Assembly: GCF_964194025.1 (NCBI RefSeq)
Contig: NC_134481.1
Coordinates: forward strand, 35,092,001-35,156,000
Length of the DNA stretch: 64,000 bases
Reading direction: 5' to 3'
Origin: Convolutriloba macropyga
Lineage: Eukaryota
Positions within the stretch are counted from its first letter, which is position 1; each line of letters starts with the position of its first letter. The notes below the pieces were generated by a model. It worked only from the letters and a program-made list of their open reading frames with translations. It made no database searches and was not told where the DNA came from. Below, piece by piece: positions 1-63,870 of this stretch. The position numbers were made by a program, and so were the translations under genes.

Positions 1-466
1 CATTCTCGTCCATTCTCGGTGTACTCACGTCTCCGTTATCAATATCCGTTCGCGGTCCCAGACCCCATAACAACCTCACATCAACCTCATCACGAAGAGA
101 ACCTAACTGGTTCTCATACATTGGCATTTTGGAAAGTTGATATGCAGCAAACTCCTCTCTAACACCCTCACTCAACATATCTGAACCAATGGGGAGATTT
201 CCCAAAGATAAATTGATAACCGATCTCTCCGTTCGATAAAACCAGGGATCAACTTGTGTGTAGGGAAGCTCTATCATCGTCTCACTCCTACTACTGTTCA
301 CTTCAGCGAAGTTCTCCATTACAATACGAGGAATAACAACCTTTCCAATTATTACCCAAGTGTTGTCCACTAATTTTTCATGTACAATAAACACATCATC
401 AGGATTCTCGTTGATAAGATAAACGTATCGCTCAAACTCACCCTTTTTCACAATTTTTACTTCCAT
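1..466 (-). CDS. 5' part of a second copy of the 8806-9471 Polinton accessory gene (runs off the window start)
   Basis: ATG at 466 (MEVKIVKKGEF...). Same sequence as 9471 downward, with one L>R change. Confidence 0.7.
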   Translation of the reverse strand, partial: MEVKIVKKGEFERYVYLINENPDDVFIVHEKLVDNTWVIIGKVVIPRIVMENFAEVNSSRSETMIELPYTQVDPWFYRTERSVINLSLGNLPIGSDMLSEGVREEFAAYQLSKMPMYENQLGSLRDEVDVRLLWGLGPRTDIDNGDVSTPRMDEN

Positions 467-660
467 TTCTAAAAAAAAGAGATCAGTTTTTCTCCTATCG
501 AAACAAGAGTTCATACACAAAAAAAATCATCATCAAACGAAAACTTCATAACACTAACCTGATATCCTGCTGTTGTTTTTGCACAATGTAGCTGATAAGA
601 AGCGATAAAGAAATCCCTCAATAGAAGCTCTGAACACAGTTAAATGAAGGAGTAAAGTTG
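1..660 (+). repeat. Direct repeat copy 1 (truncated by window start) of 9006-9665
   Basis: Matches 9006-9665 at offset 9005. I found only two mismatches (327/9332 and 635/9640). Confidence 0.95.
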
Positions 661-687
661 TAATAATGCGTTTTGCGTTTTGGGATA

Positions 688-1071
688 ATGCGTTTTGCTG
701 AAGAATCGTTCCGAAGGAATCCAAACAACATTTCACAGGAGGGAAACGCAGTGGTAGATTACGGATTTCTAACACCAGAGCAAGATGCTGAGTACTGTGA
801 TCAGTATTGGGATGTCTTGGAGACTGCTAGGCGAAAACTACGAGTGTCAACAGTTTGGTACGAAAAACAAGACTTCTCCAGGACATACTTCCAAATCAAA
901 CTTTTTACGAGAAAGTCGGTTGATGCTGAATTCGTGAAGAAGGGTTGTGTCACCATTCGAGTGGGAGAAATGCAAAAAATGATTGACCATTCAGATGCAA
1001 TGATTGAGCAGATGGCGCGTGAATCTTTCCGAAGAACCTCAACATCAATGTTAAACAACAAAAAAGAATAA
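688..1071 (+). CDS. Polinton accessory protein, possible PC4/whirly-like ssDNA-binding fold
   Basis: First ATG of ORF 673..1071. The pattern RKLRVSTV...YFQIKLF...KKGCVTIRVGEMQKM resembles the PC4 beta-sheet plus helix. AATAAA overlaps the stop. Confidence 0.6.
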   Translation: MRFAEESFRRNPNNISQEGNAVVDYGFLTPEQDAEYCDQYWDVLETARRKLRVSTVWYEKQDFSRTYFQIKLFTRKSVDAEFVKKGCVTIRVGEMQKMIDHSDAMIEQMARESFRRTSTSMLNNKKE

Positions 1072-1173
1072 AACTATGTGAACTCATATTAATTTGTCAT
1101 TGTTGATGCTAATGATTTTGTGTACAAAAAAAATAAAAAATTCATTCCAAAAAATTCTTTCATTTATTGTAGT

Positions 1174-1566
1174 ATGATTAACATTGGAGAAAATCGTAGA
1201 ATAATTTTAAAAACTTTAGAGAAAAAATCTGTAACTTTTTTCTATTTAAGAGTTTTTGAGCTAGCAAACCATCGAAAAACTCTACAACTAACATTTTTGG
1301 AAGCTAAAAATCTCCCAGCAGAGTTACAAAATCTCACGAAATTATCGTTCTCAAACGGACGAAGGCTGATTGAGTTAAATAAACTCAACAAAGATCAGTA
1401 TAAACTCATAGTTTATCAGTACAAGAAAGATCATTTCGAAATTCGTCAAATTGTTATTTTAACAGAGAGTGAGTATAAGAATTTGTACAAATACATCCAA
1501 TCTCATCAAATTCCAGAGGAAGACACCTTCAGTCCCGAAATTGATTTAGATACATCTATCAGATGA
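1174..1566 (+). CDS. Polinton accessory protein, possibly two PC4-like repeats
   Basis: ATG 1174 in ORF 1120..1566. Two internally similar halves (RRIILK..FFYLRVF..LQLTFLEAKNL and RRLIEL..YKLIVY..IVILTESEYKNL). Stop overlaps the next ATG (ATGA). Confidence 0.6.
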   Translation: MINIGENRRIILKTLEKKSVTFFYLRVFELANHRKTLQLTFLEAKNLPAELQNLTKLSFSNGRRLIELNKLNKDQYKLIVYQYKKDHFEIRQIVILTESEYKNLYKYIQSHQIPEEDTFSPEIDLDTSIR

Positions 1567-1973
1567 ATCTCGAAACAATTTTCAACAACAAACGAATACT
1601 GAGTTGTGACTATAGCGAGTTAGACATAGGTCAACGCAAGCTTTATTTTCTTGCAACTTGTCTTTCAATAAAAGCAGATGTTGATATTCATCAAGTGAAC
1701 GAATTATGCCCCTATGGAGGATTGATCGGTGTTGGGAATTCACAGCTCGAAAAAATTTTTGGAGGATCAAAAATTTTGAGAATGCATGCTATGATTCACG
1801 ACGCATGTGGTTTTATGAAATTTAATTATGGTGAAGGACCCGGTTACTGTTATATGATTCCGAATGCTCCTGACTGGATGAATAAGTGTGTACTTGGTCA
1901 CGTGACAGGAGTCCTGTACTGTCTATACTTGAAAACATTTCAGAACTGTTCATTCAACAAAATTGATATTTGA
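1563..1973 (+). CDS. Phospholipase A2-like protein (parvoviral/adintovirus PLA2 type)
   Basis: LIGVGNS resembles the YxGPGN Ca-binding loop. It is followed by HAMIHDAC (AxxHD catalytic motif) and GPGYCY. Confidence 0.65.
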   Translation: MNLETIFNNKRILSCDYSELDIGQRKLYFLATCLSIKADVDIHQVNELCPYGGLIGVGNSQLEKIFGGSKILRMHAMIHDACGFMKFNYGEGPGYCYMIPNAPDWMNKCVLGHVTGVLYCLYLKTFQNCSFNKIDI

Positions 1974-1997
1974 TAATTGGTCGAACCGAAAAAAAAA

Positions 1998-2666
1998 ATG
2001 AATCTGGTAGTAGTTGTTGATGTGGAACTATTCCCCAACGGTATCGTCAAAGAAATTGGGATGTATAGAAATGGTACAATTATTGGACTCTCTTTTTGCG
2101 CCCCCTTTCCGTACGAAGATCTTGAAAAATGGGAGGAACGACAAACCAAATGGTTAACCAAGAACCTTCACAAGATTGACTGGTCATCGGGTGAAATACC
2201 TTACGACTACTTACCTTATGTTATAGATCTAATTCGAGAACCTCAGATAATTGAAGAGAAACAACTTGATGGTGAATTATGGTGGAGTAAATTGAAATAC
2301 ATTTCACTGATTGAAAAGGAAGATTCGTTTCCAACTGGTGAAATAAAATTACAGCGTGAGAAAAGTACAGCCAACGATATTACTGGGAAATTGATATACT
2401 TTGCGAAAGGACTCCAGAAGTGTACTCTTCTATCATCAATTTTTCACGAAGATTTTGTTGATTTGGATACTATACTTTGTCCGACAGCTGAAGAACTACA
2501 TGAACAATACATGAACACTGAAAAAATCTCAGAGTGTGCACAATACCCAGTGGAGCATGGAGGAAATTTTACAAAACATTGCGCTCAGAAAAAAGTTCAC
2601 TTATTTGGTATTTGGCTTCAAAAACAGCAAGAGTATGAAAACTTTGTAAACTGTCTTGTCAATTGA
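1998..2666 (+). CDS. DEDD/DnaQ-like 3'-5' exonuclease-fold protein of Polintons
   Basis: N-terminal hydrophobic strand VVVVDVE followed by VKEIG (ExoI-like), AKG..K, VDLD..CP, and C-terminal C..H......HCA. Confidence 0.55.
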   Translation: MNLVVVVDVELFPNGIVKEIGMYRNGTIIGLSFCAPFPYEDLEKWEERQTKWLTKNLHKIDWSSGEIPYDYLPYVIDLIREPQIIEEKQLDGELWWSKLKYISLIEKEDSFPTGEIKLQREKSTANDITGKLIYFAKGLQKCTLLSSIFHEDFVDLDTILCPTAEELHEQYMNTEKISECAQYPVEHGGNFTKHCAQKKVHLFGIWLQKQQEYENFVNCLVN

Positions 2667-2733
2667 TTGTGTTCTGTAACTTAGTCATTAAATTGAATTC
2701 AATTCTTTAAAACAGTTCGTTTTTACAACAGGA

Positions 2734-3036
2734 ATGATGAAAAAAGATTTAGAAACAAATAACGGAAAAGATGAGGTTGATGGGTTTACGGGTGGTTTAA
2801 CTCAAGATATTGTTTTTGATCATACAAACCAAGAAAGGAAACCTTGGACAATTTGTGGTAAAAACTGTTCCAGATCGTTTCTAGTCTTTATGTACCAGTG
2901 CTTATTGATTCTGATTCTTACTACGATGAGTATTATTCGGATAACATTGGCTGAAACGTGTGAGGAAACGACCATTTGGGTGGCTGTACTGACAAGTTCT
3001 GTTGGCTACATGCTTCCATCTCCTCGTCCGACATAG
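2734..3036 (+). CDS. Small two-transmembrane protein
   Basis: Two hydrophobic segments (FLVFMYQCLLILILTTMSII and TIWVAVLTSSVGYMLPSP). Co-oriented within the viral gene cluster. Confidence 0.65.
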   Translation: MMKKDLETNNGKDEVDGFTGGLTQDIVFDHTNQERKPWTICGKNCSRSFLVFMYQCLLILILTTMSIIRITLAETCEETTIWVAVLTSSVGYMLPSPRPT

Positions 3037-3115
3037 GGAAAAAATTTTGGAGTAAGTAATTGTATTGATCTTGAGAGGTTTTATATCAAATAATTGGTGC
3101 CTGACCGCGAGCGCC

Positions 3116-3265
3116 GGATTTAATTTCGTAACGCGTCGTCGGTTTTAAATTAAAGACGCGTCGGCGGTTTTAAATTAAAGACGCGTCGGCGGTTTTAAAT
3201 TAAAGACGCGTCGGCGGTATTAAATTAACTACGCGGCGACGGTTTTAATTCAACAACGCAACGCA
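3116..3265. repeat. About six copies of a 25-bp tandem repeat GGTTTTAAATTAAAGACGCGTCGGC
   Basis: Three exact copies at 3141, 3166 and 3191, with diverged copies at 3116, 3216 and 3241. The exact copies contain the palindrome GACGCGTC. Confidence 0.92.
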
Positions 3266-3370
3266 AGAAATTTTTTTGATCAATTCTCAAGAAGTCATTT
3301 GTTGATTTGATAACAAAAAGATTAGTTACTCCTCAAAAGAAGAAAAACCGTTGACCAAAAAGTTGAAAAT

Positions 3371-4123
3371 ATGAATAAAATTATCTCAACCGATGAAAGA
3401 GTTTTTATGGCATTAGTTGGTCCCAGTGGCTGTGGGAAAAGTTACCTGATTTACGAAATGTTGAAAAATAAAACGTTTTATCCAAAGTTTGATAAGATAA
3501 TCTATTTTTACAAATACTATCAGAATCTTTACGATCGAATGTTGACTGATTTAGATAATATCGAATTCATTGAAACACCTGATTTCGAGCTGATTGAAAA
3601 TTTACCAAACGATGGAACGAACTATCTGATAATTTTTGACGATTCCTGTGAAGAGATTTCAAAGTCTAAAGAATTTAATCAATTAGCAACAGCAGGAAGA
3701 CATAGAAAGCTTAACTGTCTCTACATAAAACATAACCTATACCATAAAAACTCTGGAGGTAGGGATGCAGAGCTTCAAAACACACATATCGTTCTGTTTA
3801 AATCTCCTCGAGATGTGCAACAGATTGGAGTCTTGGGAAAACAGTTAGGTTTAGGTAAGCAATTAGTGTACTGGTACAATGACGCAACAGCAAAACCATA
3901 CGGACATCTAATGATTGATCTCTCTCCGCGAACTCCAGATATATTACGTTTCAGCACAAATTCCACATCATTTCCATCTTTATTCTTCCTACCAAACAGT
4001 AAGGCTCGCACAACAGAGATTGATGATAACCGTGCAGAACTTCTATATGCTAAAGCTCTTTCTAGAATTCAAGCCGAACCTCCAAAAAATTGTCCTCCAG
4101 AATTGTTCCAAGGAATTTATTAG
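3371..4123 (+). CDS. DNA packaging ATPase (A32/FtsK-HerA-like)
   Basis: Walker A GPSGCGKS, Walker B LIIFDD, arginine finger TAGRH, and the later KSPRD and PYGHLMIDL motifs typical of Polinton ATPases. Confidence 0.92.
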   Translation: MNKIISTDERVFMALVGPSGCGKSYLIYEMLKNKTFYPKFDKIIYFYKYYQNLYDRMLTDLDNIEFIETPDFELIENLPNDGTNYLIIFDDSCEEISKSKEFNQLATAGRHRKLNCLYIKHNLYHKNSGGRDAELQNTHIVLFKSPRDVQQIGVLGKQLGLGKQLVYWYNDATAKPYGHLMIDLSPRTPDILRFSTNSTSFPSLFFLPNSKARTTEIDDNRAELLYAKALSRIQAEPPKNCPPELFQGIY

Positions 4124-4376
4124 ATTCCTCTGTGAATGTACCAAAAATTTAGTCTTAGGCAAATTTGAAAACATCAAAAAATCACAGGTGAAAAAATTTG
4201 AGGGTTGTTTGAAAAGAATACTATCCAAAAACACATCACAGAAGGAACGTCGTTTCTTGTTATCCTCAAATCGCGGACTACAACTTATAAATTTTCTAGG
4301 ACAGTTCGTGATTTCCAAGTTCTCATCAAACTTCAACTCGGATGGGAACAGAAAAATTGATAAACAATTCGACTAA
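4047..4376 (+). CDS. Conserved Polinton small basic protein overlapping the ATPase 3' end
   Basis: ATG 4047 is in frame with ORF 3915..4376. The FLCECTKNLVLG...KERRFLL...GLQLI pattern and the position after the ATPase match what I recall for Polintons. Confidence 0.6.
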   Translation: MLKLFLEFKPNLQKIVLQNCSKEFIRFLCECTKNLVLGKFENIKKSQVKKFEGCLKRILSKNTSQKERRFLLSSNRGLQLINFLGQFVISKFSSNFNSDGNRKIDKQFD

Positions 4377-4947
4377 AAAGTTTGTTTTGATACCACAACA
4401 ACTGTGGGATAGATATAGTTCATTAGAAGTTACAAATAAAAACGTGCAACTTGATACTACTAAAACAGTGAGTTCAACCGAAGAACAAACACCCACCAAT
4501 TCAATATTCGTGAAACAAAAAGAAGAGAAGATTGAAAAATCTATTCCTCAAACGCAGAAAGTTGAATTGGAAGGAACCGAAGACCAAAAGTTGGAGGAAA
4601 CTGTTAATGGTGAAAAAACCGAACAACTGAAGAAATTTTTCATGCTGAAAATAAAAACAAACGGATACAAAAAGAAAATATTACAGGAATTGTTCAAATC
4701 AGACGCAATCAAATTCTCCAACGATTTAACAATCATAGCCAATAACGTTGACACAAATATTCCTGTTCTCTCATTCATTGACACAATTCGTAGCTCAAAG
4801 AAACGAGCGTTTACGGACCTACATCAATTAGTACTAAATACAGTAAACATCCCTTCCCATCTTATAGTTAACCCCAATGCCATCAAAAACGAACAAATTA
4901 AAAAGTCGGACCAAGAGAAAATTGGATGGGTACCTTTCACTTTCTGA
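4342..4947 (+). CDS. Polinton hypothetical protein preceding the integrase
   Basis: 201-aa ORF with KKFVLIP N-terminus, NIP..LIVN, and a C-terminal W motif. It overlaps both neighbours. Confidence 0.7.
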   Translation: MGTEKLINNSTKKFVLIPQQLWDRYSSLEVTNKNVQLDTTKTVSSTEEQTPTNSIFVKQKEEKIEKSIPQTQKVELEGTEDQKLEETVNGEKTEQLKKFFMLKIKTNGYKKKILQELFKSDAIKFSNDLTIIANNVDTNIPVLSFIDTIRSSKKRAFTDLHQLVLNTVNIPSHLIVNPNAIKNEQIKKSDQEKIGWVPFTF

Positions 4948-5869
4948 CAGGATGAAGTTGACTAAGCTATATCGCAAAGGAGAAAGTGCCTACGGTTCTA
5001 TAAAAAATCTCGTTAGAGTGAGTGGAATTCCAGAAAGATTGGTAAAACAGTTTCTTCATTCCAAAGCATCCTATACAAAACATCGACAAGCAAAGCGTAA
5101 ACATGATCGATTACCGGTGAGATGTCGTTTTATTAATGAAATTTGGTGTATGGACTTGGCACAGGTTGACAAACTTGCAGACAGTAATGGAGGAATAAAG
5201 TATTTAATGCTAATTGTGGATGTATTCTCTCGATTTGTTCGTGTCGGTACAATGCGAAACAAAAGCGCAGAGACAGCTAAAGCTTGTTTCATCAACCTTT
5301 GTTCAGAAAAAAATGATCTCATTTTCCCTCGGAAACTTTGGATAGACTCAGGAAAAGAGTTTTTGGCAGACTTTAAGAACTTTTGTGAGGATGCGGGTAT
5401 TCGAGTATATAGTACTCACACAGAAAAGAAAGCATTGTTTGCTGAGAGGTACATTCAGTCCTTCAAAAATATTTTGTACCGTTTCCTTGAGGAACGTAAA
5501 ACCACTCACTACAAAAAACATCTTCAAGAGTTTGTGAACACTATGAACAGTCGAGTCAACAACACAACAGGTCTTGCGCCCAAAGATGTTAGGAATCACC
5601 ACTACTTACAAGTTCTTCATTCCAGTCGACAGCAAATGAAGATTCCGAAGCTAAGAAAACCGAAATTACAACCGGGTGATAAAGTTCGCTTAGCTTATGC
5701 AGAAAAAAGTTTTCGCAAAGGGTACAAAGCACAGTTCAGCGACGATGTGTACGAAATTGTTCGAATAACAACTATCAAACCTGTCGTGACTTACCAAGTT
5801 AAAGATGAGACAGGAGAAACCTTAAAAGGTCGGTACTACGAACAAGAACTACAAAAAACAATCATTTGA
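4877..5869 (+). CDS. Retroviral-type (rve, DDE) integrase of Polinton
   Basis: DDE triad in WCMDL, WIDSGKEF and FAERYI; YLMLIVDVFSR; C-terminal SH3-like GDKVRL..F.KGY..GRYYEQEL. No chromodomain follows. Confidence 0.95.
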   Translation: MPSKTNKLKSRTKRKLDGYLSLSDRMKLTKLYRKGESAYGSIKNLVRVSGIPERLVKQFLHSKASYTKHRQAKRKHDRLPVRCRFINEIWCMDLAQVDKLADSNGGIKYLMLIVDVFSRFVRVGTMRNKSAETAKACFINLCSEKNDLIFPRKLWIDSGKEFLADFKNFCEDAGIRVYSTHTEKKALFAERYIQSFKNILYRFLEERKTTHYKKHLQEFVNTMNSRVNNTTGLAPKDVRNHHYLQVLHSSRQQMKIPKLRKPKLQPGDKVRLAYAEKSFRKGYKAQFSDDVYEIVRITTIKPVVTYQVKDETGETLKGRYYEQELQKTII

Positions 5870-5871
5870 TT

Positions 5872-6711
5872 ATGGACTATCATATTGTTGAGTTGCTATC
5901 CAATGCTTCTGATAAAATTTATCCAGATAATACACTTTCATGCTTCACAGTATTTTTACCCGAACAGTTAAACTTTGAGGGTGAGTGGGAAGTAGCGCTA
6001 CTAGAAATTTTGCACCCATCAGCGTACAACAACATTTCCGAGGGTAAATTTTGGTATGTTGATTCAAAATCCGATTCTAGAGATGAGACGCAAACTAACC
6101 CTGACACAGGTCTAAGCATTAAGCTAGACCCTATTTACATTGCTCCAGGTCTTTATATGTCCTTAGCAGAAATTCTTCTTGCAATGAATGATGCTCTGGG
6201 GAAGATAAGACCGAAAGAGAAAGTTAACATCAAGTGGAGTTTGGATAATGTTTCAAGCAAAGTAAAAATAACTCTTCCCTCAGAAAACTCCCAGTTGATT
6301 GTTGCAAGCCAAGACTTAGCATCAATCTTAGGTTTCAAATCCAACTTCTGGCTATACACAAAAGGTCCACATATCAGTCAGTACCCGATTGATATCCTCA
6401 GAATTCATTCTGTAATGGTTTACACAGACATTGTAGAGTACAGCATAATTGGAGATACCAAAGCTCCTATACTCCGAACTTTTCCTTTCAACCAAAAAGT
6501 TCAACACGGGAATATATCGGTTACTAAATTCATGAGCTACACTTCGTTTCAAAATCTTCATTTCCGTAAACTGTTAAAAAACTCGTTTCAGACAATCAAA
6601 ATAGAACTTCGATCACAAACTGGAGAGTTAATCCCTTTCGTTGATAGGGGTCTAACTAGTTTAGTTCTTCTCTTTCGCAAAAAGCAATCACTTTCAGTTA
6701 ATCACCCCTAA
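5872..6711 (+). CDS. Minor capsid protein (penton, single jelly-roll; Polinton PX)
   Basis: N-terminal LLSNAS..YPDNT.S.F.V.LP...GEWEVALLEI, VYTDIVE..IIGD..APILR, and C-terminal I.IELR...GELIPF. Confidence 0.88.
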   Translation: MDYHIVELLSNASDKIYPDNTLSCFTVFLPEQLNFEGEWEVALLEILHPSAYNNISEGKFWYVDSKSDSRDETQTNPDTGLSIKLDPIYIAPGLYMSLAEILLAMNDALGKIRPKEKVNIKWSLDNVSSKVKITLPSENSQLIVASQDLASILGFKSNFWLYTKGPHISQYPIDILRIHSVMVYTDIVEYSIIGDTKAPILRTFPFNQKVQHGNISVTKFMSYTSFQNLHFRKLLKNSFQTIKIELRSQTGELIPFVDRGLTSLVLLFRKKQSLSVNHP

Positions 6712-6714
6712 CAA

Positions 6715-7101
6715 ATGGCAGGCTATAATTCTTTACCATACTTTAGCGGAGTACCTCGTCAAAGAGGACGTGGTCTGGGTGCTTTTGCTGGTACAGTGGC
6801 TCGTTCCGCTTTCCCAATACTGAAAAAATATTTTGTACCCGCAGCCAAAAGAATTGAAAAAGATCTAATTGAAGCCGCGATACCTCAAATCGAAGAAGTG
6901 ATGTCAGGTCGTAGTAATATTAAAAAAGCTGCAAAGCGTACAGCTACTGCAACTCTTAAGAAACAGTTGGGAGCAGGACCTCCACGGAAAAAGTCTAAAC
7001 TGAAGAAATCAAAAGCTCCGCGAAAGAAAAAGAAAAAAATCACTTCAAAAAAATCACGTAAGCAAACCAGTCGTCAAGATTACTTGAAACATTTACCTTA
7101 A
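6715..7101 (+). CDS. pVII-like basic core/DNA-condensing protein
   Basis: YFSG..RQRGRGLG N-terminus, a second QLGAG site, and a very K/R-rich tail. Lies between penton and major capsid. Confidence 0.8.
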   Translation: MAGYNSLPYFSGVPRQRGRGLGAFAGTVARSAFPILKKYFVPAAKRIEKDLIEAAIPQIEEVMSGRSNIKKAAKRTATATLKKQLGAGPPRKKSKLKKSKAPRKKKKKITSKKSRKQTSRQDYLKHLP

Positions 7102-7109
7102 ACAAAACG

Positions 7110-8351
7110 ATGATTCCAAATTCTGTACAACCAGACTGCTTAGATATCTTTGAGGAAATATCTATTCTGAACTCTATTACAAGAGGTGACGAACAAAAAA
7201 TTTACCCAATAAATTCTCTCAATGAATCCAGTATTGACTTTTCATTTGTAACTGACAGAAATGTTTTCACCGACCTTCGAAAAGTTGACATGTATCTGAA
7301 AGTTAAACTTGTCAAAGATGGGAGACCTGTCACCGCGGAGGATGATGTTTGCTTAGTTAACAACTCCATGCACTCTTTGTTCTCAAACTGTGAAGTAACA
7401 TTTAACACAGATCAAGTTTACACCACAAACGGTCTCTACGCGCATAAAGCCTTCATGTCTAACGAATTCTCGGGTACACAGGGAACAAAAGAATCTATCA
7501 GTTGTTGTCAGGGCTATAGCTATGAACAGTCACCCGGCGATTTTGAACACGAACCAGCAATCGTGAAAAGAAAGAAGGACAATCTAGAGGAAATGGAGTT
7601 TTATGGTGAATTACCAATCGAAATTTTTAACTGTAAAGGGCTTCTTCTACCTAACGTTACAGTTCATATTAAATTAATCAGATCGCGACCCCAGTTCTAT
7701 TTAATGTCATCAAAATCAGAAAATATTCATGCAGTTATAACGAATACCTATCTCAAAATAAGAACCTTGACAGTCGACGAAGGTAGTTTTCAAATTATTC
7801 GTAAAAAACTTGTAGAAACTCCAGCCAGGTTTAATGCTTTGGAACTTAAACCCAGAACTTTTATCATTCCAGCGGGTCAAAACCAATTTATACATGAAAA
7901 CATTTTCAACAACGCTCCAATTCGAACACTCGCCATTGCGATGAACACAAATAGTGCTTTCACCGGTGATAAAAGTGGAAATCCTTTCCATTATCAAAAG
8001 TTTGGTTTACGAGAAATCAAAATATCGAGAGGGAATCAAGTTGTTGTGCACATGGATACTAGTAGAAATTGTGTTCCATACATTACAACAATGAGAGCTT
8101 TAAAATTCTACCAAGACGGTCCTAACATTAAAATTAATGACTACGAAAACCATTTTTGTTTGGTTTTTGATCTAACCTCTACACAACAATCAGAACTGAT
8201 GATTCACTATCCTGATGTCATTTCAGCAAGCTTGAGACTTGAGCTATACTTCAGAGAAAATTTAACGAACACTATCGAAGTAATAGTCGCTGGTGAACAG
8301 TTGTCATCTATTTTCATTGACAAAAACGGAAAAGTAACGAAAAATGGATAA
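7110..8351 (+). CDS. Major capsid protein (double jelly-roll; Polinton PY)
   Basis: IDFSF, YLKVKL, NNSMHSLFSNCEV, YAHKAF, LLLPNV, NPFHYQKF, FDLT and LRLEL.F motifs; 413 aa. Confidence 0.9.
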   Translation: MIPNSVQPDCLDIFEEISILNSITRGDEQKIYPINSLNESSIDFSFVTDRNVFTDLRKVDMYLKVKLVKDGRPVTAEDDVCLVNNSMHSLFSNCEVTFNTDQVYTTNGLYAHKAFMSNEFSGTQGTKESISCCQGYSYEQSPGDFEHEPAIVKRKKDNLEEMEFYGELPIEIFNCKGLLLPNVTVHIKLIRSRPQFYLMSSKSENIHAVITNTYLKIRTLTVDEGSFQIIRKKLVETPARFNALELKPRTFIIPAGQNQFIHENIFNNAPIRTLAIAMNTNSAFTGDKSGNPFHYQKFGLREIKISRGNQVVVHMDTSRNCVPYITTMRALKFYQDGPNIKINDYENHFCLVFDLTSTQQSELMIHYPDVISASLRLELYFRENLTNTIEVIVAGEQLSSIFIDKNGKVTKNG

Positions 8352-8911
8352 CACACAAATAGAAATAATAGTAGCACTTATTCCTGTTCTGAAATATAAG
8401 TTTATGGGTTGCTACCCTTCGAACTTATTACCGAACGACATACCGGAACTCTTTCTACATTGTTAACACTGATGTGTCGAATGGTAGAGGGATTCACTGG
8501 ATTCTATTAGCCCGAAAAAACAGTTGCTATTACTATGGAGACTCTCTTGGAAGAGACATCAATCACTATGCAAACATTAAGTTCACCAGAAAAACTCGTA
8601 AACTGATCGCTTCCAAACTTCAAACTGATAGTATTTGTGCACTATATTCAATTTACTTTGCCTATGTACTGTTTAATAATTTGTCCTTGTTCAATGTTGA
8701 CGATGCTTTTATAATGAGGTTTTTGCTGAATATTTATAATTCATTTTTTTATAATCAACAACTTTTTCAATCTTGTACAAACATAACAGTTGTAGTTTCA
8801 ATTATTCAAAAGGTAGTTGCATGCTCATCATCCGAGTCATCAAAAAGTCTTCCTCTTCTAGCTTTTTTCACTATCGGTACCCAGTATTCACATTCATCAT
8901 CTGTTTCCTGA
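8344..8911 (+). pseudogene. Adenain-like cysteine maturation protease with frameshift(s), either decayed or a sequencing indel
   Basis: ATG 8344 overlaps the MCP stop and reads MDNTQI...FMGCYPSNLLP, stopping at 8464. The +1 frame from 8447 gives FYIVNTD..G.GIHW, YYGDSLG and QTDSICALY (H, D, Q/C catalytic residues). One extra T at 8720-8724 would end the protein at TAA 8737-8739. Confidence 0.85.
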
Positions 8912-9471
8912 TCTTCGTCAACTCTCCAAAACCTTTTTGATGAAACGTCTTGGAAGCGAACCATCTTTTTGGGTGCTCGCGTTACAGACGATGACGATGA
9001 AGTTTCATTCTCGTCCATTCTCGGTGTACTCACGTCTCCGTTATCAATATCCGTTCGCGGTCCCAGACCCCATAACAACCTCACATCAACCTCATCACGA
9101 AGAGAACCTAACTGGTTCTCATACATTGGCATTTTGGAAAGTTGATATGCAGCAAACTCCTCTCTAACACCCTCACTCAACATATCTGAACCAATGGGGA
9201 GATTTCCCAAAGATAAATTGATAACCGATCTCTCCGTTCGATAAAACCAGGGATCAACTTGTGTGTAGGGAAGCTCTATCATCGTCTCACTCCTACTACT
9301 GTTCACTTCAGCGAAGTTCTCCATTACAATAAGAGGAATAACAACCTTTCCAATTATTACCCAAGTGTTGTCCACTAATTTTTCATGTACAATAAACACA
9401 TCATCAGGATTCTCGTTGATAAGATAAACGTATCGCTCAAACTCACCCTTTTTCACAATTTTTACTTCCAT
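8806..9471 (-). CDS. Polinton accessory protein with acidic, motif-rich C-terminus
   Basis: ATG 9471 in ORF 8806..9525 gives 221 aa. It is the only antisense gene of the block and converges on the protease. C-terminus has STPR, KKMVRF and KKARRGRLF. Confidence 0.7.
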   Translation of the reverse strand: MEVKIVKKGEFERYVYLINENPDDVFIVHEKLVDNTWVIIGKVVIPLIVMENFAEVNSSRSETMIELPYTQVDPWFYRTERSVINLSLGNLPIGSDMLSEGVREEFAAYQLSKMPMYENQLGSLRDEVDVRLLWGLGPRTDIDNGDVSTPRMDENETSSSSSVTRAPKKMVRFQDVSSKRFWRVDEDQETDDECEYWVPIVKKARRGRLFDDSDDEHATTF

Positions 9472-9665
9472 TTCTAAAAAAAAGAGATCAGTTTTTCTCC
9501 TATCGAAACAAGAGTTCATACACAAAAAAAATCATCATCAAACGAAAACTTCATAACACTAACCTGATATCCTGCTGTTGTTTTTGCACAATGTAGCTGA
9601 TAAGAAGCGATAAAGAAATCCCTCAATAGAAGCTCTGAAGACAGTTAAATGAAGGAGTAAAGTTG
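9006..9665 (+). repeat. Direct repeat copy 2 of 1-660
   Basis: Identity with 1-660 ends at ...GGAGTAAAGTTG (660/9665), after which the two copies diverge. Confidence 0.95.
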
Positions 9666-10160
9666 AAGTTGAGAAATGTAACTCCGAAAAAAACCTGAAA
9701 TTTTCAAAGGTTATCAACTATTACACACAAAAAAAATTTTGTAATTGTAATAAGAATAAATTTACCAGGATGATCGAGTTTTGTTCCAAGTTCTTTACTT
9801 TAATCGCAGAAGAGATTCAATCAAACAATTATCTGAAAGAAAAATAGGACCATAATATATGGAGGAAATTATTTAATTATTCTCTTAGATAGTGGAACAT
9901 ATTCGACACAAACTTTTTCTGTAAATGGCAACAATTTAATTTGTTTTTAAATTGGAAATTGTCACCTATTTACAATTTGAGTTTGCATAAATTTTTATGA
10001 CAAGTCAAGAATTAACAAAACAACAAAACTAGAATAATTTTAACTGAGCAGAATAAAATCGAAGGTGAAAAATCCTTTTTGAGTAACTCAATAAACATAC
10101 AATCAGAAACAACAGATAATCAAACGCTTCCTCCAAACCCCCAATTTTTGAAAATGATTT

Positions 10161-10745
10161 AAATTTCAAAAACAAAAACTCAAGATGTGACATAATTACT
10201 CCTGGAGATAATTAGGGTAATTAAAAACCCACGCCAATTAATTTCACATTTTAATATGACCTAAAATTTCAAAACCAAAATTCAAGATGTCACATAATTA
10301 CTCCTCAGATAATTAGGGTAATTAAAAACCCACGCCAATTAATTTCACATTTTAATATGACCTAAAATTTCAAAACCAAAATTCAAGATGTCACATAATT
10401 ACCCCTCAGATAATTAGGGTAATTAAAAACCCACGCCAATTAATTTCACATTTTATTATGACCTGAAATTTGTAAACCAAAATTCAAGATGTCACATAAT
10501 TACCTCTCAGATAATTAGGGTAATTAAAAACCCACGCCAATTAATTTCACATTTTAATATGACCTGAAATTTGTAAACAAAAATTCAACCTGTCACATAA
10601 TTACCTCTCAGATAATTAGGGTAATTAAAAACCCACGCCAATTAATTTCACATTTTAATATGACCTGAAATTTGTAAACAAAAATTCAACCTGTCACATA
10701 ATTACCCCTCACATAATTACAGCAATTAATTACCCACGCCAATTC
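10161..10745. repeat. Subterminal tandem repeat, 101-bp unit, about 5.8 copies (probably within the terminal inverted repeat)
   Basis: CCCACGCC recurs at 10228, 10329, 10430, 10531, 10632 and 10733. Confidence 0.95.
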
Positions 10746-10800
10746 TATTGTTCTCAAGTAAACACTTAATAACTACACAAAAATTGATATTTTCCCCTCA

Positions 10801-10863
10801 AAATTTCAACCAATCAGGAGCGTCTCCGAACCTACCCCCCACATCTGCACCGACTATACTACT
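10801..10863 (-). other. Putative Polinton right terminus (TIR end)
   Basis: The minus strand starts AGTAGTATAGTCGGTGCAG. A CCAAT box lies about 50 bp inside. The next 6 nt (GACGTT) are the candidate target-site duplication. Confidence 0.75.
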
Positions 10864-12759
10864 GACGTTGTTACTAGGTGCTTTTAAACTTAGATTAGAT
10901 ATTGACTTTTTGCCGCGAAATCTTTGTTTTTGCTCATTTTATTTGTGAGCGCAGTAATTTTGCTTATTTCTCGTGAGCCCAGAAATGAGGCATGGCATTA
11001 TGAATTTTAATTAGCTTGGGTGGGTAATTATTTTCTCAATTATCTATTTTTGAGTACCTCATTTGTTTGACAACGAAGTCAAAAATGTAGATGAGCTCGA
11101 GTCGGAACATCATGTGCAAACGCACATTAACGATCCTCCTGCTTAATGCTGACAATTTAAACACTTTACACAATTTACATTTCAAATGAATAGTTAAGAA
11201 CTGAAGCCCAGCAGATTCACGCTAAAACGTTAACAAATTAAAATCTTTTTTTCACGATTTCCCCCAAAAATTGTTGTTCCAAAAAATTCCTCTTATATCA
11301 AACTAATTCAACGAAGAACACGAACAACATAGCCGGCAGATTGCCGGAAAAAAGGCAGATTGCCGGAACAGTTTTTTTTGTTTCGAAAAGCTTTCAAATT
11401 TGGCGCGCAGTTTCAGTTGGATTCAAAAACTATAATTAATTCAGCTACTAAGCTGAAAGCTAATAAGCCTAAAACCAATGTCAGCCAGCAAAAACTCTAA
11501 TGAACTTTGATAACCTAATTCTAAATGACTTAATATGACCGGGCTTTACCGGCTGATCCCATCTCTTTTGATTTTGCTTTTTTGAATTTGACCGTTTTCA
11601 CTATATTGCGTAATTCAATTCATGAAAGAATTTAAAATCCATTCAGTTGAAACAGTGAGTGAAGTAAGTCTCAAGTCGAACGTGAAAATCGTACTTATGT
11701 AAAACGAAAAACGTGATCAAAAGGTAAAGCGAATTAAAACATAGGAGGACAAGTCCTGACGTAAAATTTAGAGAATTTTCCTTGACTAAACAAATAATAT
11801 ACTTAAATCGACTAAATCGGAATTGATTGGGAAAACCATTTCCAAAAAATCAGATAAAAAAATTGCATGTGAACAAAAAACCACTAGCGAGAAAAAGAAA
11901 TTTGGTTCAAATAAAAAGCTACGCCCAGAATGAACTATGAATGGATTGGGAAAACCATTCAGAAAAAAAATTCAATCCAAAGAAAACAGTAAAAATCAAA
12001 GCGAAAATGCCGCGTGTGAACAACAAACACTAGCGAGAAAGCAATTTTTTGTTCAAACACCGTTTTCAATCGACTTTAAAATTAGAGTAAGAAAATTTCA
12101 CGCCGCACAACGACTCGCTTTTTCGCTCCACTTCCTGTTTCTGCGTGACCAAAATCACTACTCCAATTTGACTTCAAAAATCATGAAAATGTGTGAACAT
12201 ATCTTAAAAAAAGACTGCACCCCAATACAATTCAAATTCTTTGAATTGTAAAAAAAAAGGAGCGCGCAGACGGCAGCTATTAAAAATGAAACCAAAACGG
12301 CCGACTACACCTTTGCACGTTCAATTTTATAAATGTCCGGGTCGACAAACTCATTAGAATTAACCCTAAAACTGAAGCCTCTTCCAATTTTAGATGACAC
12401 GAGCTATAAAGGAACAACAATTTGATTTGCACAATCTGAAGAGAACAGCACGAAAATTTAGGGCATAAAGTGATTGCTGAAACTGTTTCCTCCACCCTCA
12501 TTTGTGAAAAAATTCTAAATCATAGCTAACCCCCAAATTTTTTGGGCTTAATTAGAAGAACCGGACATTATGAGTTCAGATTGTCAAATAACTCAAATTC
12601 AGAGCAAATATTTCCGCATAAAGGCCAAATGAGTTGTCAAAATATCTGTTTATGGACGTACGGGCATTAAAATTTGTCATAGGTGGCTAATCGCAAAAGG
12701 GAAAACAGTTCTCATATGTATCTAATGAATGAGAAATTCTATAGCATAAGATACACAGA

Positions 12760-13300
12760 TCAGACCGTCTGAGAGTCCGGCTTCTCAAGTTGCATTCCAT
12801 TAGTGTCTTTGTTCTTCTTCAACAATTGAACAACTTCCCCATTCAAGTGACTTCCTCTCTCTCCATTCGTCAGTTCATACTCAACATACAATACTGCATC
12901 GTGTACACTCGGAAACATGTTCTCAGCTCCGATTTTGTCCACGAAACCTTCCCGTTCCAACTTTTCCACGGTTTCCAGTTCGGCACACGTTATCAGGAAC
13001 TGGACTTCCAGACTTTTGCAATACTGCAACACTGTGACCAAAGCGATAACACCTGAATGGTCGATGAAATTGAGCGGTTCTCCATCTAAGATCAGGAACC
13101 TTAGCTTGGAATCGTCTTCTCTTTTCGGAGTTGTTGATGACGCCACACAGCCATTCATGCTACTGTGGTGGTTGCTACTGGAGTGACTTAGGCACTCGAT
13201 ATGCCGTTGTGATATCTCTTTCTTAATTGAAGATAGGAAGCTGTCCACGTTTGCAAAGTAGAGCGACATGTTGAAACGGAATATGATTGTCTGAGGAATC
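12760..13300 (-). CDS. SLC26: SLC26 coding exon 7 (STAS domain, stop)
   Basis: TTTTCAG|G ATT CCT (KIPQTIIFRFNMSLYFAN...FPSVHDAV...SQTV*). Confidence 0.92.
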
Positions 13301-16300: not shown

Positions 16301-19300
16301 AATTTTTAAAGCGAGGAAAATCATTTTAGAGATTGACGTAAGTCATATGTATCCAAAAATTAACTCATGCAAATGAACAAAAAAGACACTACTAAAAGCG
16401 AGTGAAAAATCATGTTAGGCACGGCACGCATTACAGTCACAATTTCCGTATTTGAAGTTATGGTGGCATCAATGATCGAAACAACAAACTTGACGCTAAG
16501 TAATAGGCGTCTATTTGAACCACAATTATTACAATGAAACAAAACAATTGGCAACAAATTGCCCAATTGCCGCAGCATTGAAAATTTTTAATATAAACCT
16601 ATTCAAACCTCGAAAAAACTGCCTGTTCACAAAAAATTTCCGTTCACAGAACATTCTTTCACGCGTCAACTCGCTTTCTCAAAACAGCGGCATGAACTAA
16701 AAATCACTCTTTTCACCCAACTCCCAAAATTTGTTCAACAATCAAACTACTCAAAATTTAATGCATTTCATTTCCCGTTTCAATTCAGTCCAATAAAATT
16801 GATTATAAAAATCACGACTTTTTGTCGTAAAAAAGGTAGCGCGCCAATACAATTAATAGCCTCTGAGAGGCTGACGGCTGCTATTAAAAAGATACCAAAA
16901 AAATCAAAATCAGCAAATAATCTTCTGAAAAGCCCTACAAATCGCAACGTGCCAACGAGGTCTACGTTCCCATGCACACCTACTTTTTAATGTTCTCGTA
17001 AGAAGATATGTCCCTGTACTGCTTAGTGCCCACTACTTGTCCCAACTGAAAGGAGTGGGGCCTCTGAGACCTCCAGAGAACAGAGAGGAGAGACAGCACA
17101 ATTCCACAGATAAGACCATACGTGATGTTCATCAGGATTGTAAAGAGAGCAGTCAAAACCCAACAGACGAAGTCATACTTGGCGCTTCGGTACAACGACT
17201 GAAACAATAATGGCTTGATAATTAAATAAACAAGTGGGATCAGAAGATGTTTTCGGTTTTTGAGTATTCTCAGATATTCAATTTCGGAAAATTAAATTTT
17301 GATGGTAGAGCACTGAATTTTAGTTTATTTTGCCTCAAATGCATATATTGCCGCAAGCATCAATTTTAAATGGTTAGTTAGTCAACAAAAACCCCGATAG
17401 CAACTTTTTGATGGACTAACAAATACACGGCTCTCAGAGAAAACAGTGGGAAATTGCCAGTATCAGTCACCGTTGACCCGTGACCAAGGATGGTTTCACA
17501 CAGCGAAAAAAATTGGCAACAGTGTCAAAAAGTGTTCTAATTTGGTTCGCAGTTTTATCAGACTCAGGTGAATTCAGCCTCTAAATTGGCTTTTTGATAA
17601 GCGTAAAATGAATACCAAATTAGAAGTATACTAAAAGAAGCCTTGATAATTTTATGCACTAAGTCTTTCAACTTCATGTCTGTGCCCGGATCTTAATTGT
17701 TTTATCCGGTTTCTTCTTTCAATCCTTTTTTGAAACGAATTAAAAAGTATAGCCAGAACAATCTGGAATCCACTCAAATAAACCTTTACCATGAAGTGAG
17801 GGGGCTGATGTGGGAGAGGAATTAAGTGTGGGGGTGGGGGTCAAACTCTAAGAAATGTCCTTCACAGCATACGTCTCTAATACAGTTTCTGTGAATCGCA
17901 TACATGGAGACTAGTGAGCTGAAAGGGTCTAAGAGAACTTGATGCCCTTTGGGTGCTACCTGTTTATCAATTTTTTGCCGCAAGCATATATTGCCTGTTT
18001 ATCATATATTGCCGCAAGCATCAATTTTAAATGGTTAGTTAGTCAACAAAAACCCCGATAGCAACTTTTTGATGGACTAACAAATACACGGCTCTCAGAG
18101 AAAACAGTGGGAAATTGCCAGTATCAGTCACCGTTGACCCGTGACCAAGGATGGTTTCACACAGCGAAAAAAATTGGCAACAGTGTCAAAAAGTGTTCTA
18201 ATTTGGTTCGCAGTTTTATCAGACTCAGGTGAATTCAGCCTCTAAATTGGCTTTTTGATAAGCGTAAAATGAATACCAAATTAGAAGTATACTAAAAGAA
18301 GCCTTGATAATTTTATGCACTAAGTCTTTCAACTTCATGTCTGTGCCCGGATCTTAATTGTTTTATCCGGTTTCTTCTTTCAATCCTTTTTTGAAACGAA
18401 TTAAAAAGTATAGCCAGAACAATCTGGAATCCACTCAAATAAACCTTTACCATGAAGTGAGGGGGCTGATGTGGGAGAGGAATTAAGTGTGGGGGTGGGG
18501 GTCAAACTCTAAGAAATGTCCTTCACAGCATACGTCTCTAATACAGTTTCTGTGAATCGCATACATGGAGACTAGTGAGCTGAAAGGGTCTAAGAGAACT
18601 TGATGCCCTTTGGGTGCTACCTGTTTATCGCGTTTTTGAGGACCAAAAGTTAAAAGCGTCAGTCGAAAAATCGGTCCAGCGAAAAATCGCATAAAAAAGA
18701 GCTTGTTTGAGAGCAATTGAAAACGATACATACTCAAAACCTTTTCCATCAATCTTAACAATATCCTCAATTTCCAACGTTTGGTCACTTGTTTTTCCGA
18801 GATTTCCTGATCCCGTAGAAAAAACCTATGTAGAAAAACATTACGCGCTTAATTAATAAAGATTGTTAAAATTCATTCCGCAGAAGCTTTTTTATTAGTG
18901 TCCTTTATTACACATGAGTTCCTTTGATCTTATACTAACTCAAAGTAAACTTAAGTTTTAAAGCCCAAAAGTCATTTAAATGAGTGAAGTAAGTCACTTA
19001 TGTTCAAATCTAATCACGCAAATGACCTAAAAACGTTGGCTAAAGAGAGTGGGAAATGAAGTCACGCGCGCAAATGCCATTAGTGAGAGGACGAAATCAA
19101 TCAGAAAATTTGACTTTCAGCTTTGCTGTATGAAAAAATATAAAATATAACCGACTAACGCCGGGCGATTTGCTCTCAAACAACCGGCGAGCGGTTGGCT
19201 TCGTCAGTAGCTAACCATGGTTTAGTGAGGCTAGCTTCAGCTTAATTGAAGAGGCGTGAAGTGAGCGCAGCGGTGGAGGGCAACAGTGAGAGGGTTTTTT

Positions 19301-25300: not shown

Positions 25301-28300
25301 CGAACCACGTGCCTCCAAGATGTCAGTCTGACATCTTAGATTACTCAAAAATGAAGGATTCAACCTAGAAAAACTCACTCGAGTGAAAAGTTAAAGAATG
25401 TGTAGAACAAGAGTGCAAAAAACGGTCAAGCAAAAATTTTGCATAAAAACCGCGTTTGCAATAATTACTTAAACTTCGTCCGAGATCAATTTATCATTTA
25501 ATTTAAATTTGAGCTTATCTAATCTACGGTGCTAGGTAAATCGCAAGTTCGATGGCCTGAGCAGACTCGGTTAGACTCACTGGTAACTCTAATGCCTGTT
25601 TGAAGAAGGAGCGGAGGGCAATGATGATGATGGCACCCAGCACTGTATATGGACAGGAGTACATCAGAGGACCAGCACAGATCATCACCACCAACATAAC
25701 ACCACTAAACATCAATAACTGTCACAGCATAGCACTTAGAGGCAGAAATAAAGATAATGCTGCGCAACCTCTGCCTTTCCGAGAAAACAAACGAACAACA
25801 AAAATAATTTTGTCGCCATTTTAAATTATATCCCTTACCGACACATGCTATCAATTCTTACGCTCAAAATTTTAGCAAACAAAATTTTTCAGCTTGTTTA
25901 AAAAAAACTTTCAGCTATTTTATAATTTTGATGCTTGGATCAATTTTTTTAAAGAGCTCGCGAAGTTTCGGCATTCGTATATCTTATGCCAAAAATTTTA
26001 CAATTTCAGGGGCAAATTTTAAATTTAGTAGTCAGATAACCAGAAAGCATCTTAGATTTTACATAATTGCAGGTAGGAAACCTTCGAATGCCATTAGGGG
26101 GGTTGAACCAATTAAAGATAAGCTATCCGGCTGACTTCCGGCAAACTGTTCTCAAACGACTGGCAGCGGTTATTCGTAGCTTGCTTAAGCAAGAGCCGCC
26201 ATAATTTCGCTACGGGTATTAATGATGTTTGCTATCGAGCAGTTTCTTAATTTTGATTGCATTTAGAACAAAGAGATGATACTCCTGATGAAATTCTATT
26301 CAGTAGACGCAGTGAGTTAGATCAGGTAGTAAGCTTAAGCAAAAATAATTGGCATAACAAAAGACTTGAGCAGAAAGCGAAAAACTCACGAAAGACAAAA
26401 CATGATATATAATCTAGTTAAAAAAATCTAAAACCTACCTGAAGACAGTTACCGAAGTTACAATAATAACCACATTAAAAAAATAAAACAGAAGAATCCT
26501 CAAGTAACTTTTAAACAACTGGATAAACAACTGATTTAAACAACTTTTAAACGTTAGCTCTCTGATGCAGTAAAAACGCCAAAAGAAAGTCAAAATTAAG
26601 TTAAAAACGTCAAAATTCGGATTGTGCTATTACTAACGTCTGAAACTGGAAAGAGAAGAATAAGTCAGTATTATTACAAAAACTGTAAAAAGTAAAAATC
26701 CTTCAATCTTTCGAATAATTCCGTTCATTAAAATTTGAAAAAGAAAACCGCCACAACAAACTTTTAAACAAAAACAGACGCAGTACTTCTAAAATCTCCA
26801 AAAATGCAAAGCCGATAAAGGCAAAAAAAACTAGAAAACAGTAAAATCAAAAAAATATATTGGTGAAACATACCCTCTTAGAGCTTCAAAAAGAAACAAC
26901 AACGGGATAGAACCTGAAGTATAACAGAATTAAATCGAAAACACCCTTTTCACTATGAACTAGACTGCCCAACAAAGAATTATGCTTTGCGGGAGCATCT
27001 CCTTCAACTAATAGGCTAGAAAATCCAACTTAAAAACTGCACTGTATGATGTTCTGGGGCTTTGCCAATCTATTCTATTTCTATAATCCATGTCTTTCCA
27101 AAAAAATGACCAGTACAATCAAATTATTGCAGAGTAAACAAAACCAGTTTCAAAAAAATGACCACAAAATTGTTGACCTTCTTGGTGCCAATGAGTCACA
27201 AAACAAAAACTGCGAGGTCAAAATTTTCCACATGAATGCAGACTTTACCTCTAAAAGATTCAAGACTTCAGCTCAGAAAGTACAAAACTTAGAAGACATT
27301 CAAAATTACATAAGTTATTGCGAAATGGTCGATTTCATTCAAACTTGTGTCTTCGAAAACAAATTGTCTTGCCTAATCTACGGAACAGCTAAAGTGCAAG
27401 CTAGCAGACATATGGTTGGAAATTAGAGAAATCAAGCAAAAACGAAAAAAGTTTTTGAAAAACTAGACAAAATTTGCATACGTTTTTGAAGCTCACGTCG
27501 CCGATGCAAAATAGATGCTGCTAAAATCTGTCCATTGAACCACACAAAAGCTTCAAAAAAGCTACCAATGCCCCTCAAAAAAGAAAACTTAAAGGCCAAA
27601 ATTTTCCAAAAAAACAATGAGAAGTAAATGGAGCGTGCACAACGCCTTTATGACCTCAGCGTCAATTAAAGATCTTTTAAACACAAACTCAAACATAACC
27701 GGAAAATTGCCGGAATGTAGTCACCGGTGACCCACTTGACGCACAAATGGGATTGAAACAGAAAAACAGCCTGCGCATTGACGGAAAGTAGCTGCGATAG
27801 ACGATTGCGGCCTTCCATGGAATTGAAACAACTAAAGAAATGAGATAGACAAATTGACAACCAGGCCTTTAATAGACCACTAGACCTTTTGGGACAACCG
27901 CTTTACAAGGATAAATCCCATCAGACCTTTTTCAAATTTAATATTCGAAATCAAGAACTCAAGATTCTAATACTTAAGAATAAGGGCATATACGTTTGGC
28001 ACTACTTAGATGCATACTACTGATCTTTCACTAAATTTAATGTTCCTTAAGTGAGATCAGCAGTCACTTTTTTTGCGTGAGATAAGTCAAGCCATTTGGC
28101 CTAAAAGCAGAGCAAGAAACGTCACGCACACAAATTTTAACTGCGAAGCAGTAATCACTGAAACTGAAAATGTCAATGGTCGCAGGAATCATCGATGAAG
28201 ACAAGGAATTAAAAAACACGCTTCGCAGTTATCAAAAACATAGCCGGCATATTGCCGGAGTAGCTGCCAAAGAATACACTTGTGTGCCGTATAATATAGT

Positions 28301-60276: not shown

Positions 60277-60690
60277 ACGCTGAACATTCTACAGCATGGC
60301 AATATGTTTTAGCCGATGTGGGGAGTAAACTGTAGTGGCTTCCTCGTGGAACGGTGTGAACAGTCCGCTGAAGACGTTTCTGAACAATATTATGTCTCCA
60401 TGAACAAAAGATCCTAATATCAGTCCTATGATTCTGTTGGCCTAGGCTGCTTTCTCTGCAATGTGTTTGTCAATTGTGAGTTGGCTGTCGGAGTTGATAC
60501 CCAAGTCCACCTTTAATCTTGTTGTCTGACTGTTCTTGTAGGTACAACAATCAAGTGACTCAAGTTTTCTGTTTCCAAGTTGTAACACATGCTTTGTCTG
60601 GATGAAAGGTAAGTTTGCCAATCATACTCTGGTCGTTCATTTTGTAAAAGTCTCGCTGCAAGACTTGGACTTCCTCATCGTTTTGATAGC
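60277..60690 (-). mobile_element. CR1-like LINE, upstream piece
   Basis: The minus strand reads DLGINSDSQLTIDKHI..KA..ANRIIGLI..SF and leads into the NVQ motif that resumes at 55626. Confidence 0.65.
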
Positions 60691-63600: not shown

Positions 63601-63870
63601 AACCCAGATCAAGTAATGAACAGTATGTACAATTCAATAGCCATGTGCAAATCCGGATAATCGATCTGTTACTATCGTATATGATGTTACCATTTTAAAC
63701 TTATTAAAAAGTTTTCTTTGAAAGTGGCAGATGAAAGGAGCAGCCGTGGAGGCTCAAGAACGCGAAGTCAATAGTCAAGAAAACCTATCCAACAAATAAT
63801 GGGCAACCTTGCAAGTGGTTGACCACAAATTCAAATTACAGACTAAGAAAGTGATCAAAAGACAGTACAC
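60660..63870. repeat. Diverged long-period tandem repeat (about 1.1-1.3 kb units, 2.5-3 copies)
   Basis: TTGATAGCTTGGTAGATTTT recurs near 60683, 61759 and 63063. AAAAAGAATGAATTAATAGAAATATCTATTGGC occurs at 61147 and 62401. Confidence 0.88.

Follow-up and report, generated by a model that had tools for sequence, protein, structure and literature searches.

Is a cassette of virion genes that is repeated head to tail, with no polymerase gene in sight, a helper-dependent element of its own kind? The question was raised by the start of a 64,000-nucleotide stretch of the Convolutriloba macropyga genome (contig NC_134481.1; G000:C15:35092001-35156000 of a 1.18-Gb assembly; hereafter the window), where a first-pass annotation had described a capsid and integrase cassette of a Polinton or adintovirus. 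The window was compared with the 40 kb upstream (four tiles) and with five other matching loci. The cassette was found to be part of an ordinary Polinton/Maverick of a known kind that has its own gene for a protein-primed DNA polymerase B (pPolB). The capsid half of this element was very probably doubled once, long after insertion, by host DNA repair of the polymerase-theta type.

Self-comparison of the window showed that positions 1-660 recur at 9006-9665 with exactly two mismatches, at 327 and 635, as first described. Positions 682-9005 match the tile directly upstream at 99.89% identity over 8326 columns; the repeat thus extends well beyond 660 bp, and 1-660 is where a complete first copy ends. 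Copy 1 of the block, 8,983 bp in length, begins 8.3 kb upstream of the window (L009:1678), and its last 660 bp occupy 1-660 (+ strand). Copy 2 is 685-9665 (8,981 bp, + strand), with 24 bases (661-684) between the two. The unit had been taken to start at 661 with a period of 9005 bp; the block instead starts at 685, 661-684 is a junction insert, and a 2-base indel makes the period 9007 where the block starts but 9005 where it ends. The block is present in exactly two head-to-tail copies of about 9.0 kb, which differ at 10 places in all, one of them the junction. An array of more than two units was ruled out, as upstream tiles L010-L012 contain no match of at least 80 bases to window positions 1-11200.

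The whole element spans 28,490 bp (G000:C15:35074374-35102863), of which 1-10863 lie in the window. Its left terminus begins AGTAGTATAGTCGG 17.6 kb before the window (L010:2374), directly preceded by the target-site duplication GACGTT (L010:2368-2373). The right terminal inverted repeat (10802-10863, - strand) is 62 bp long, ends ACTACT and has one mismatch to the left one; the terminus at 10863, correctly placed in the first-pass annotation, is followed by GACGTT (10864-10869, + strand), giving a 6-bp target duplication on both sides. The ends AGTAGT...ACTACT correspond to the (AGT)2...(ACT)2 motif in a passage of PMC8097293, and the genes and ends of the element are those that this passage and one of PMC10748475 list for Mavericks. 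Inside this one pair of terminal repeats and target duplications, 11-14 kb upstream of position 1, lies a pPolB gene on the strand opposite to the capsid genes. Its 1001-residue open reading frame (ORF; L010:6018-9023, - strand, the frame extending beyond) matches DNA_pol_B_2 (PF03175) with an E value of 2.7e-16 and 60 bits against a cut-off of 25.8. It is true that no pPolB occurs between position 1 and the terminus, and a tblastn search with the upstream pPolB against all 64 kb of the window gave no match at E<=1e-3. A polymerase-less element is nevertheless ruled out by the pPolB inside the shared termini, a finding that the first-pass annotation had itself named as removing its proposal of a helper-dependent capsid donor. 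Alpha adintoviruses (Starrett et al.) are marked by an OTU domain together with a PF03175-class PolB; here PF03175 was found, and no OTU family was detected by Pfam at E<=0.01 in the scanned pieces, which omitted part of the N-terminal frame of pPolB. The arrays just inside the two ends differ, with 111-bp units upstream of the window (L010:3447-5767) and a 101-bp unit repeated 5.8 times at 10161-10744, and the terminal inverted repeats are merely 62 bp.

Three sister elements with 99.1-99.5% identity were located at C15:44.8 Mb, C2:82.0 Mb and C9:5.3 Mb (18,911, 18,298 and 18,725 bp, respectively). Each of the three contains a single block, is bounded by two termini and a 6-bp target duplication of its own, and gives a pPolB match at 99% identity. 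The junction is spanned by one of 13 assembly matches to window positions 600-1600, namely this locus. This family thus has the usual design with a polymerase, and only the present locus carries the duplication. A proposed origin from a circle or concatemer did not hold up against two units, internal breakpoints and a single locus, while the proposal of a recent internal tandem duplication was confirmed by the 99.89% upstream copy, the single pair of termini and the pattern of substitutions. Terminal-repeat divergence proved useless as a dating tool, since the identical single mismatch occurs in all four elements.

The 24-bp junction insert (661-684, + strand) is found in neither parent position and in none of the three sisters. 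Positions 662-676 copy 15 bases at the block start, compared with a longest match of 8 in 3000 random pairs of 100-base element contexts. The remainder is a short re-copy of part of the same block-start motif, a pattern as from a polymerase restarting on one template. Homology between the two ends of the block amounts to 0 and 1 base, and unequal crossing-over between repeats is therefore excluded. Four of the five listed sequencing runs were aligned over 300-3000, and 31 of 54 pieces were seen. An 84-base contig from run X3 equals 631-714 without a difference, at a depth of 79.6 versus 280-309 on the flanks; the contig covers the junction, which is very unlikely to be a false join. It contains 30 flank bases on each side of the insert, as a 31-mer assembly would presumably give at a repeat-flanked junction. 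Both normal continuations were seen as loose ends at 660 and 685 in runs X2, X3 and X4. Depth bins, treated by hand arithmetic and not to be read as copy number, suggest a junction contig in X4 (about 68 versus 145 for the normal continuation) and leave X2 undecided. Run X1, from another study, covers 12 of 30 bins with no junction contig listed and is not evidence either way.

The two copies and the three sisters differ at 78 substitution sites over 685-9665, indel sites omitted. Private changes of single sisters account for 27, 17 and 13 of these sites, 11 are common to the two tandem copies alone, five are private to copy 1 and two to copy 2, and three show other patterns. The pattern is a star, as left by four elements that appear to descend from a nearly identical source. 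Seven of the 11 common changes are non-synonymous, three synonymous and one non-coding; the sisters' private changes comprise 35 non-synonymous, 15 synonymous, three stop and four non-coding ones. The protease interval was counted as non-coding because it is absent from the ORF list. Since the 11 common changes resemble the sisters' private ones, it is more likely that the element had already been decaying in the chromosome for some time when it was duplicated there. About three-quarters of the branch leading to this locus would then precede the duplication, a late event in place. Recombination between two different sisters was ruled out, as both copies carry the 11 common private sites.

The locus is decaying. 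The pPolB frame is broken by one in-frame stop after about 154 codons, near its start; many Polinton pPolB frames in the genome have 1440-1485 codons. The protease frame has 132 codons in the three sisters, 189 in copy 1 and 40 in copy 2, where it is frameshifted, and the window copy is therefore without a full working morphogenesis set. The first-pass statement that 661-9665 holds all morphogenesis genes plus the integrase thus stands for the ATPase, integrase and capsid genes, which lie in 685-9665, and fails for the protease. In copy 2 a 228-residue ORF is truncated by the breakpoint, and the 11 other ORFs compared, including those for the ATPase, the integrase and both capsid proteins, have equal lengths in both copies, as the youth of the duplication leads one to expect without selection. 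Any dependence of this locus on other copies is trivial, a matter of decay and not of design. The idea that the duplication raises virion-gene dosage is unsupported, given that other loci doubled the polymerase part and that the second copy here lost its protease frame.

On the preferred reading, a standard Polinton/Maverick of about 19.5 kb inserted here through its own integrase, as seen from the terminal repeats, 6-bp target duplication, pPolB, integrase and capsid genes, and then gathered mutations in the chromosome; the site counts are seen, and from them we infer that the changes arose after insertion. Late in this history, a break or stalled fork inside the element may have led repair to copy about 9 kb from the sister chromatid, following the model in excerpts of PMC7368036, where the sister chromatid serves to lengthen one end of a break before that end is rejoined. 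The extended end would have been rejoined to the original end by polymerase theta, the patch being what is seen and the enzyme what it suggests. Polymerase theta may first have copied a few bases beside the breakpoint, released and restarted, leaving the 24-bp patch. The outcome would be a single element of 28.5 kb in which the capsid and integrase half is present twice, without evident function, at a decaying locus. According to the relevant part of PMC13031629, microhomology and flank-templated inserts at the junctions of tandem duplications are the signature of end joining by polymerase theta, a signature lost in polq-1 mutants. Excerpts of PMC7368036 put most worm tandem duplications at 10-20 kb and those of BRCA1-deficient tumours at about 10 kb; there and in excerpts of PMC13031629, tandem duplications that depend on POLQ are described with sizes of about 10-25 kb and larger and with microhomology or templated inserts. 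The genome contains a POLQ gene with helicase, POLQ helical and Pol A domains. Its frame runs without a break for at least 2112 codons (2242 from stop to stop) at L036:3665-10000 (G000:C5:4.65 Mb), and the gene is apparently intron-free; in many animals POLQ has multiple exons.

Several points weigh against this reading. The cases on record were obtained in repair mutants, and according to excerpts of PMC7368036 and PMC13031629 the wild types rarely showed such events; the 24-bp insert is also slightly above the 1-20 bp class in a legend of PMC13031629. The dating is based on few sites, and the non-duplicated part has five private sites in 5677 bp where about nine are predicted from the rate in the duplicated part. 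The X3 junction contig is one base short of the 31-base bridging rule at the edges of the insert and is listed for one of four runs, among 31 of 54 pieces. The runs may derive from the assembled individual and so test the assembly, not the population. Other template-switching routes, namely microhomology-mediated break-induced replication (MMBIR) and fork stalling and template switching, leave similar patches, and dependence on POLQ cannot be shown from sequence.

Tandem copies were also found elsewhere in the genome. At least two capsid tandem pairs occur in 101 scored matches (this locus and C2:11.25 Mb) and at least two pPolB tandem pairs in 74 scored matches (C7:9.09 Mb and C1:73.27 Mb). 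Pairs were picked by eye with only the best candidates scored, so these counts are lower bounds, and the loci C2:11.25 Mb, C7:9.09 Mb and C1:73.27 Mb were assigned by Polinton-type genes of other families, not by termini. Their units measure 4.12 kb (99.9% identity), 5.44 kb (99.7%) and 2.78 kb (99.2%), respectively; as judged by eye, a 3-base microhomology is present at the 4.12-kb junction and short imperfect ones at the 5.44- and 2.78-kb junctions. An older relative at C9:4.53 Mb carries three copies of a 3.1-kb block, their junctions identical. In host DNA of the window, mostly single-copy, 17342-17977 is repeated at 18003-18638 (636 bp, 99.5%), and the 25-base patch at the junction combines stretches of 12 and 9 bases taken from the two breakpoints, against a null maximum of 9 in 2000 draws. 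With four other Polinton loci in tandem copies, two of them doubling pPolB, and this host duplication, duplication is therefore not special to capsid genes. A wider proposal, which we regard as doubtful, is that the germline is a natural tandem duplicator, in which polymerase-theta-type duplications of 0.6-9 kb, a class met mainly in repair mutants and BRCA1-deficient tumours, arise and persist often, in five Polinton loci and in nearby host DNA.

The genome carries a large and partly recent Polinton load of several families, with at least 101 capsid and at least 74 pPolB matches and thousands of unscored candidates. The relative at C9:4.516-4.544 Mb (L022-L024) is about 93% identical, has the target duplication CCGGAG and a tripled capsid-protease block, and shows an extra partial copy outside its right terminus. 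At C5:70.32-70.34 Mb (L026-L027) an array of units of about 1.4 kb contains at least 10 copies of the terminus of an older relative (about 88%), each followed by nearly identical 12 bases; the array is satellite-like and built on a Polinton end. Self-comparison of the window also revealed older nested direct duplications at 27020-34042 and 60683-63871, with units of 0.6-1.4 kb and 71-94% identity. Host DNA 1.9 kb beyond the element encodes a STAS domain (12763-13269, - strand; PF01740, E 9e-14); this ORF or exon probably forms the final part of a gene for an SLC26-type transporter.

The duplication might instead have occurred before integration, through a template switch of pPolB in strand-displacement synthesis during the element's extrachromosomal replication, with the 28.5-kb product then integrated. 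Both breakpoints inside the element, together with clean termini and a target duplication, would fit such a course; a templated patch does not identify its polymerase, and the 11 common substitutions could stem from a parent copy missing in the assembly. However, these substitutions occur in none of the three sisters, the sites form a star, and seven of the 10 common coding changes are non-synonymous, like the sisters' private decay. A similar junction is present in the host sequence, 6.5 kb outside the element, and the junction itself occurs at one locus only. On this evidence duplication before integration is unlikely. A false head-to-tail join of two haplotypes or sister elements in the assembly is extremely improbable. 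The copies are 99.9% identical, which leaves some room for it, yet the X3 contig equals 631-714 without a difference (depth 79.6 versus 280-309 on the flanks), both copies share 11 substitutions present in no sister, and a 24-base templated insert is hardly what a false join should produce.

A further possibility concerns the fate of the duplication: a host accident may have been retained since the locus, dead for replication, supplies virion proteins in trans to its sisters or to the host. The stop in pPolB would suit this, as would the equal length in both copies of 11 block ORFs, with the ATPase, integrase and both capsid ORFs among them. Retention for this purpose is nonetheless very improbable, because copies that differ at 10 places, one of them the junction, would be expected to keep open frames without selection, and all five copy-private substitutions classed as coding are non-synonymous. 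The protease frame is changed in both copies (40 and 189 codons versus 132), and tandem pairs show no capsid bias, with at least two in 101 scored capsid matches and at least two in 74 scored pPolB matches. Hardly any credence can be given to a capsid and integrase element that arose from a circle or concatemer and is helper-dependent by design. The window is without pPolB, and with a stop in the pPolB of this locus the copy may in practice need help, but pPolB lies inside the same termini, there are two copies only, the junction joins internal positions and not termini, and three sisters each give a 99% pPolB match. The late doubling of a resident Polinton by host repair is the reading that we prefer.

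Copy 2 of the block carries the following genes, on the + strand unless stated. A 127-residue remnant (688-1071) is the 3' part of the 228-residue ORF, which copy 1 holds in full and the breakpoint interrupts here. It is followed by four accessory ORFs without Pfam match (130, 136, 222 and 100 residues; 1174-3036), of which the 136-residue one (1563-1973) may be related to adintovirus PLA2X, a virion-module gene product of alpha adintoviruses that it resembles in a motif, and by a 25-bp tandem repeat of 4.7 units (3131-3248). An A32-type packaging ATPase of 250 residues (3371-4123) matches PF04665 over the cut-off (E 3.7e-6), and a retroviral-type (rve) integrase of 330 residues (4877-5869) matches PF00665 (E 6.2e-11). 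Two ORFs of 117 and 201 residues at 4023-4947 have no assigned function from the ORF list and Pfam. The 279-residue product of 5872-6711 is a probable minor capsid protein (penton), which in a Polinton is expected to be a single jelly roll, indicated by a weak Atlas match: its recognition value of 2199 is below the tool threshold of 2300, 28 of 30 matches are unnamed clusters, and rank 30 is a Sputnik minor-capsid cluster (0.97). A basic 128-residue protein without Pfam match (6715-7101) is a candidate core protein (pVII-like). The 413-residue product of 7110-8351 is a double-jelly-roll major capsid protein by its predicted fold; the model, built from a 62-sequence alignment, has a predicted local distance difference test score (pLDDT) of 87, and Foldseek ranked iridovirus, PBCV-1, mavirus and Sputnik capsids best (E 1e-15 to 1e-12). 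Pfam gave no match for either capsid protein. The adenain-type protease gene (8344-8742) is frameshifted near 8447, its frame ending after 40 codons; the end coordinate 8742 is approximate, set from the 132-codon length in the three sisters. The protease ORF of copy 1 matches Peptidase_C5 clusters in Atlas (0.97), and sequence searches gave no match in Pfam and none in PDB (best E 0.12). A 237-residue ORF on the - strand (8806-9519) has no function assigned from the ORF list and Pfam. Adintovirus-type virion genes appear restricted to animals, according to a passage of PMC8502044, which points to an animal host.

As a virus finding the locus matters little, being a decaying Polinton with a doubled half and not a new life style. 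It offers a clean natural case of a tandem duplication of about 9 kb with a templated junction, datable against three sisters, and it illustrates how a complete element, if cut by the edge of a window, can be mistaken for one without a polymerase. No report of an internal duplication in a Polinton was found in titles and abstract openings of the literature on tandem, internal, concatemer or circular forms of Polintons/Mavericks, which is weak evidence of absence, and passages of PMC11131425 contain nothing relevant to it. The frequency of templated tandem duplications across the genome is a lead worth following: if they are unusually frequent genome-wide, this genome would offer a natural system for a kind of mutation that is otherwise investigated in repair mutants. 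Were the germline indeed a natural duplicator, young Polinton families, whose sisters keep the unduplicated state and give a clock, would be built-in reporters of duplication rate and junction spectrum in a wild genome.

The element resembles animal Polintons/Mavericks (the adintoviruses of Starrett et al., PMC8502044) in its pPolB, rve integrase, A32 ATPase and double-jelly-roll capsid protein, and likewise in its probable penton, adenain-type protease, AGTAGT...ACTACT ends, 6-bp target duplication and polymerase and capsid genes on opposite strands. It differs in its length of 28.5 kb, against the 13-25 kb quoted in a passage of PMC10748475, because of the duplication (the sisters measure 18.3-18.9 kb). 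The terminal repeats, 62 bp here and in all three sisters, are below the 100-1500 bp quoted in that source, and the stop in pPolB and the frameshift in one protease copy depart from a standard Polinton. With polymerase-less or helper-dependent Polinton-like viruses and virophages it shares capsid, ATPase and integrase genes in one block; unlike these, it has its own pPolB gene within its termini and shows no circle or terminus-to-terminus junction. Compared with the polymerase-theta tandem duplications of C. elegans brc-1/brd-1 and tnsl-1 mutants and of BRCA1-deficient tumours (excerpts of PMC7368036 and PMC13031629), the present case comes from the wild, from a genome not known to be defective in repair, has an insert of 24 bp that apparently took two copying rounds, and has a presumed enzyme suggested by the DNA. 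It matches them in a head-to-tail duplication of about 10 kb that formed without long homology at its ends and carries a junction insert templated by the flank.

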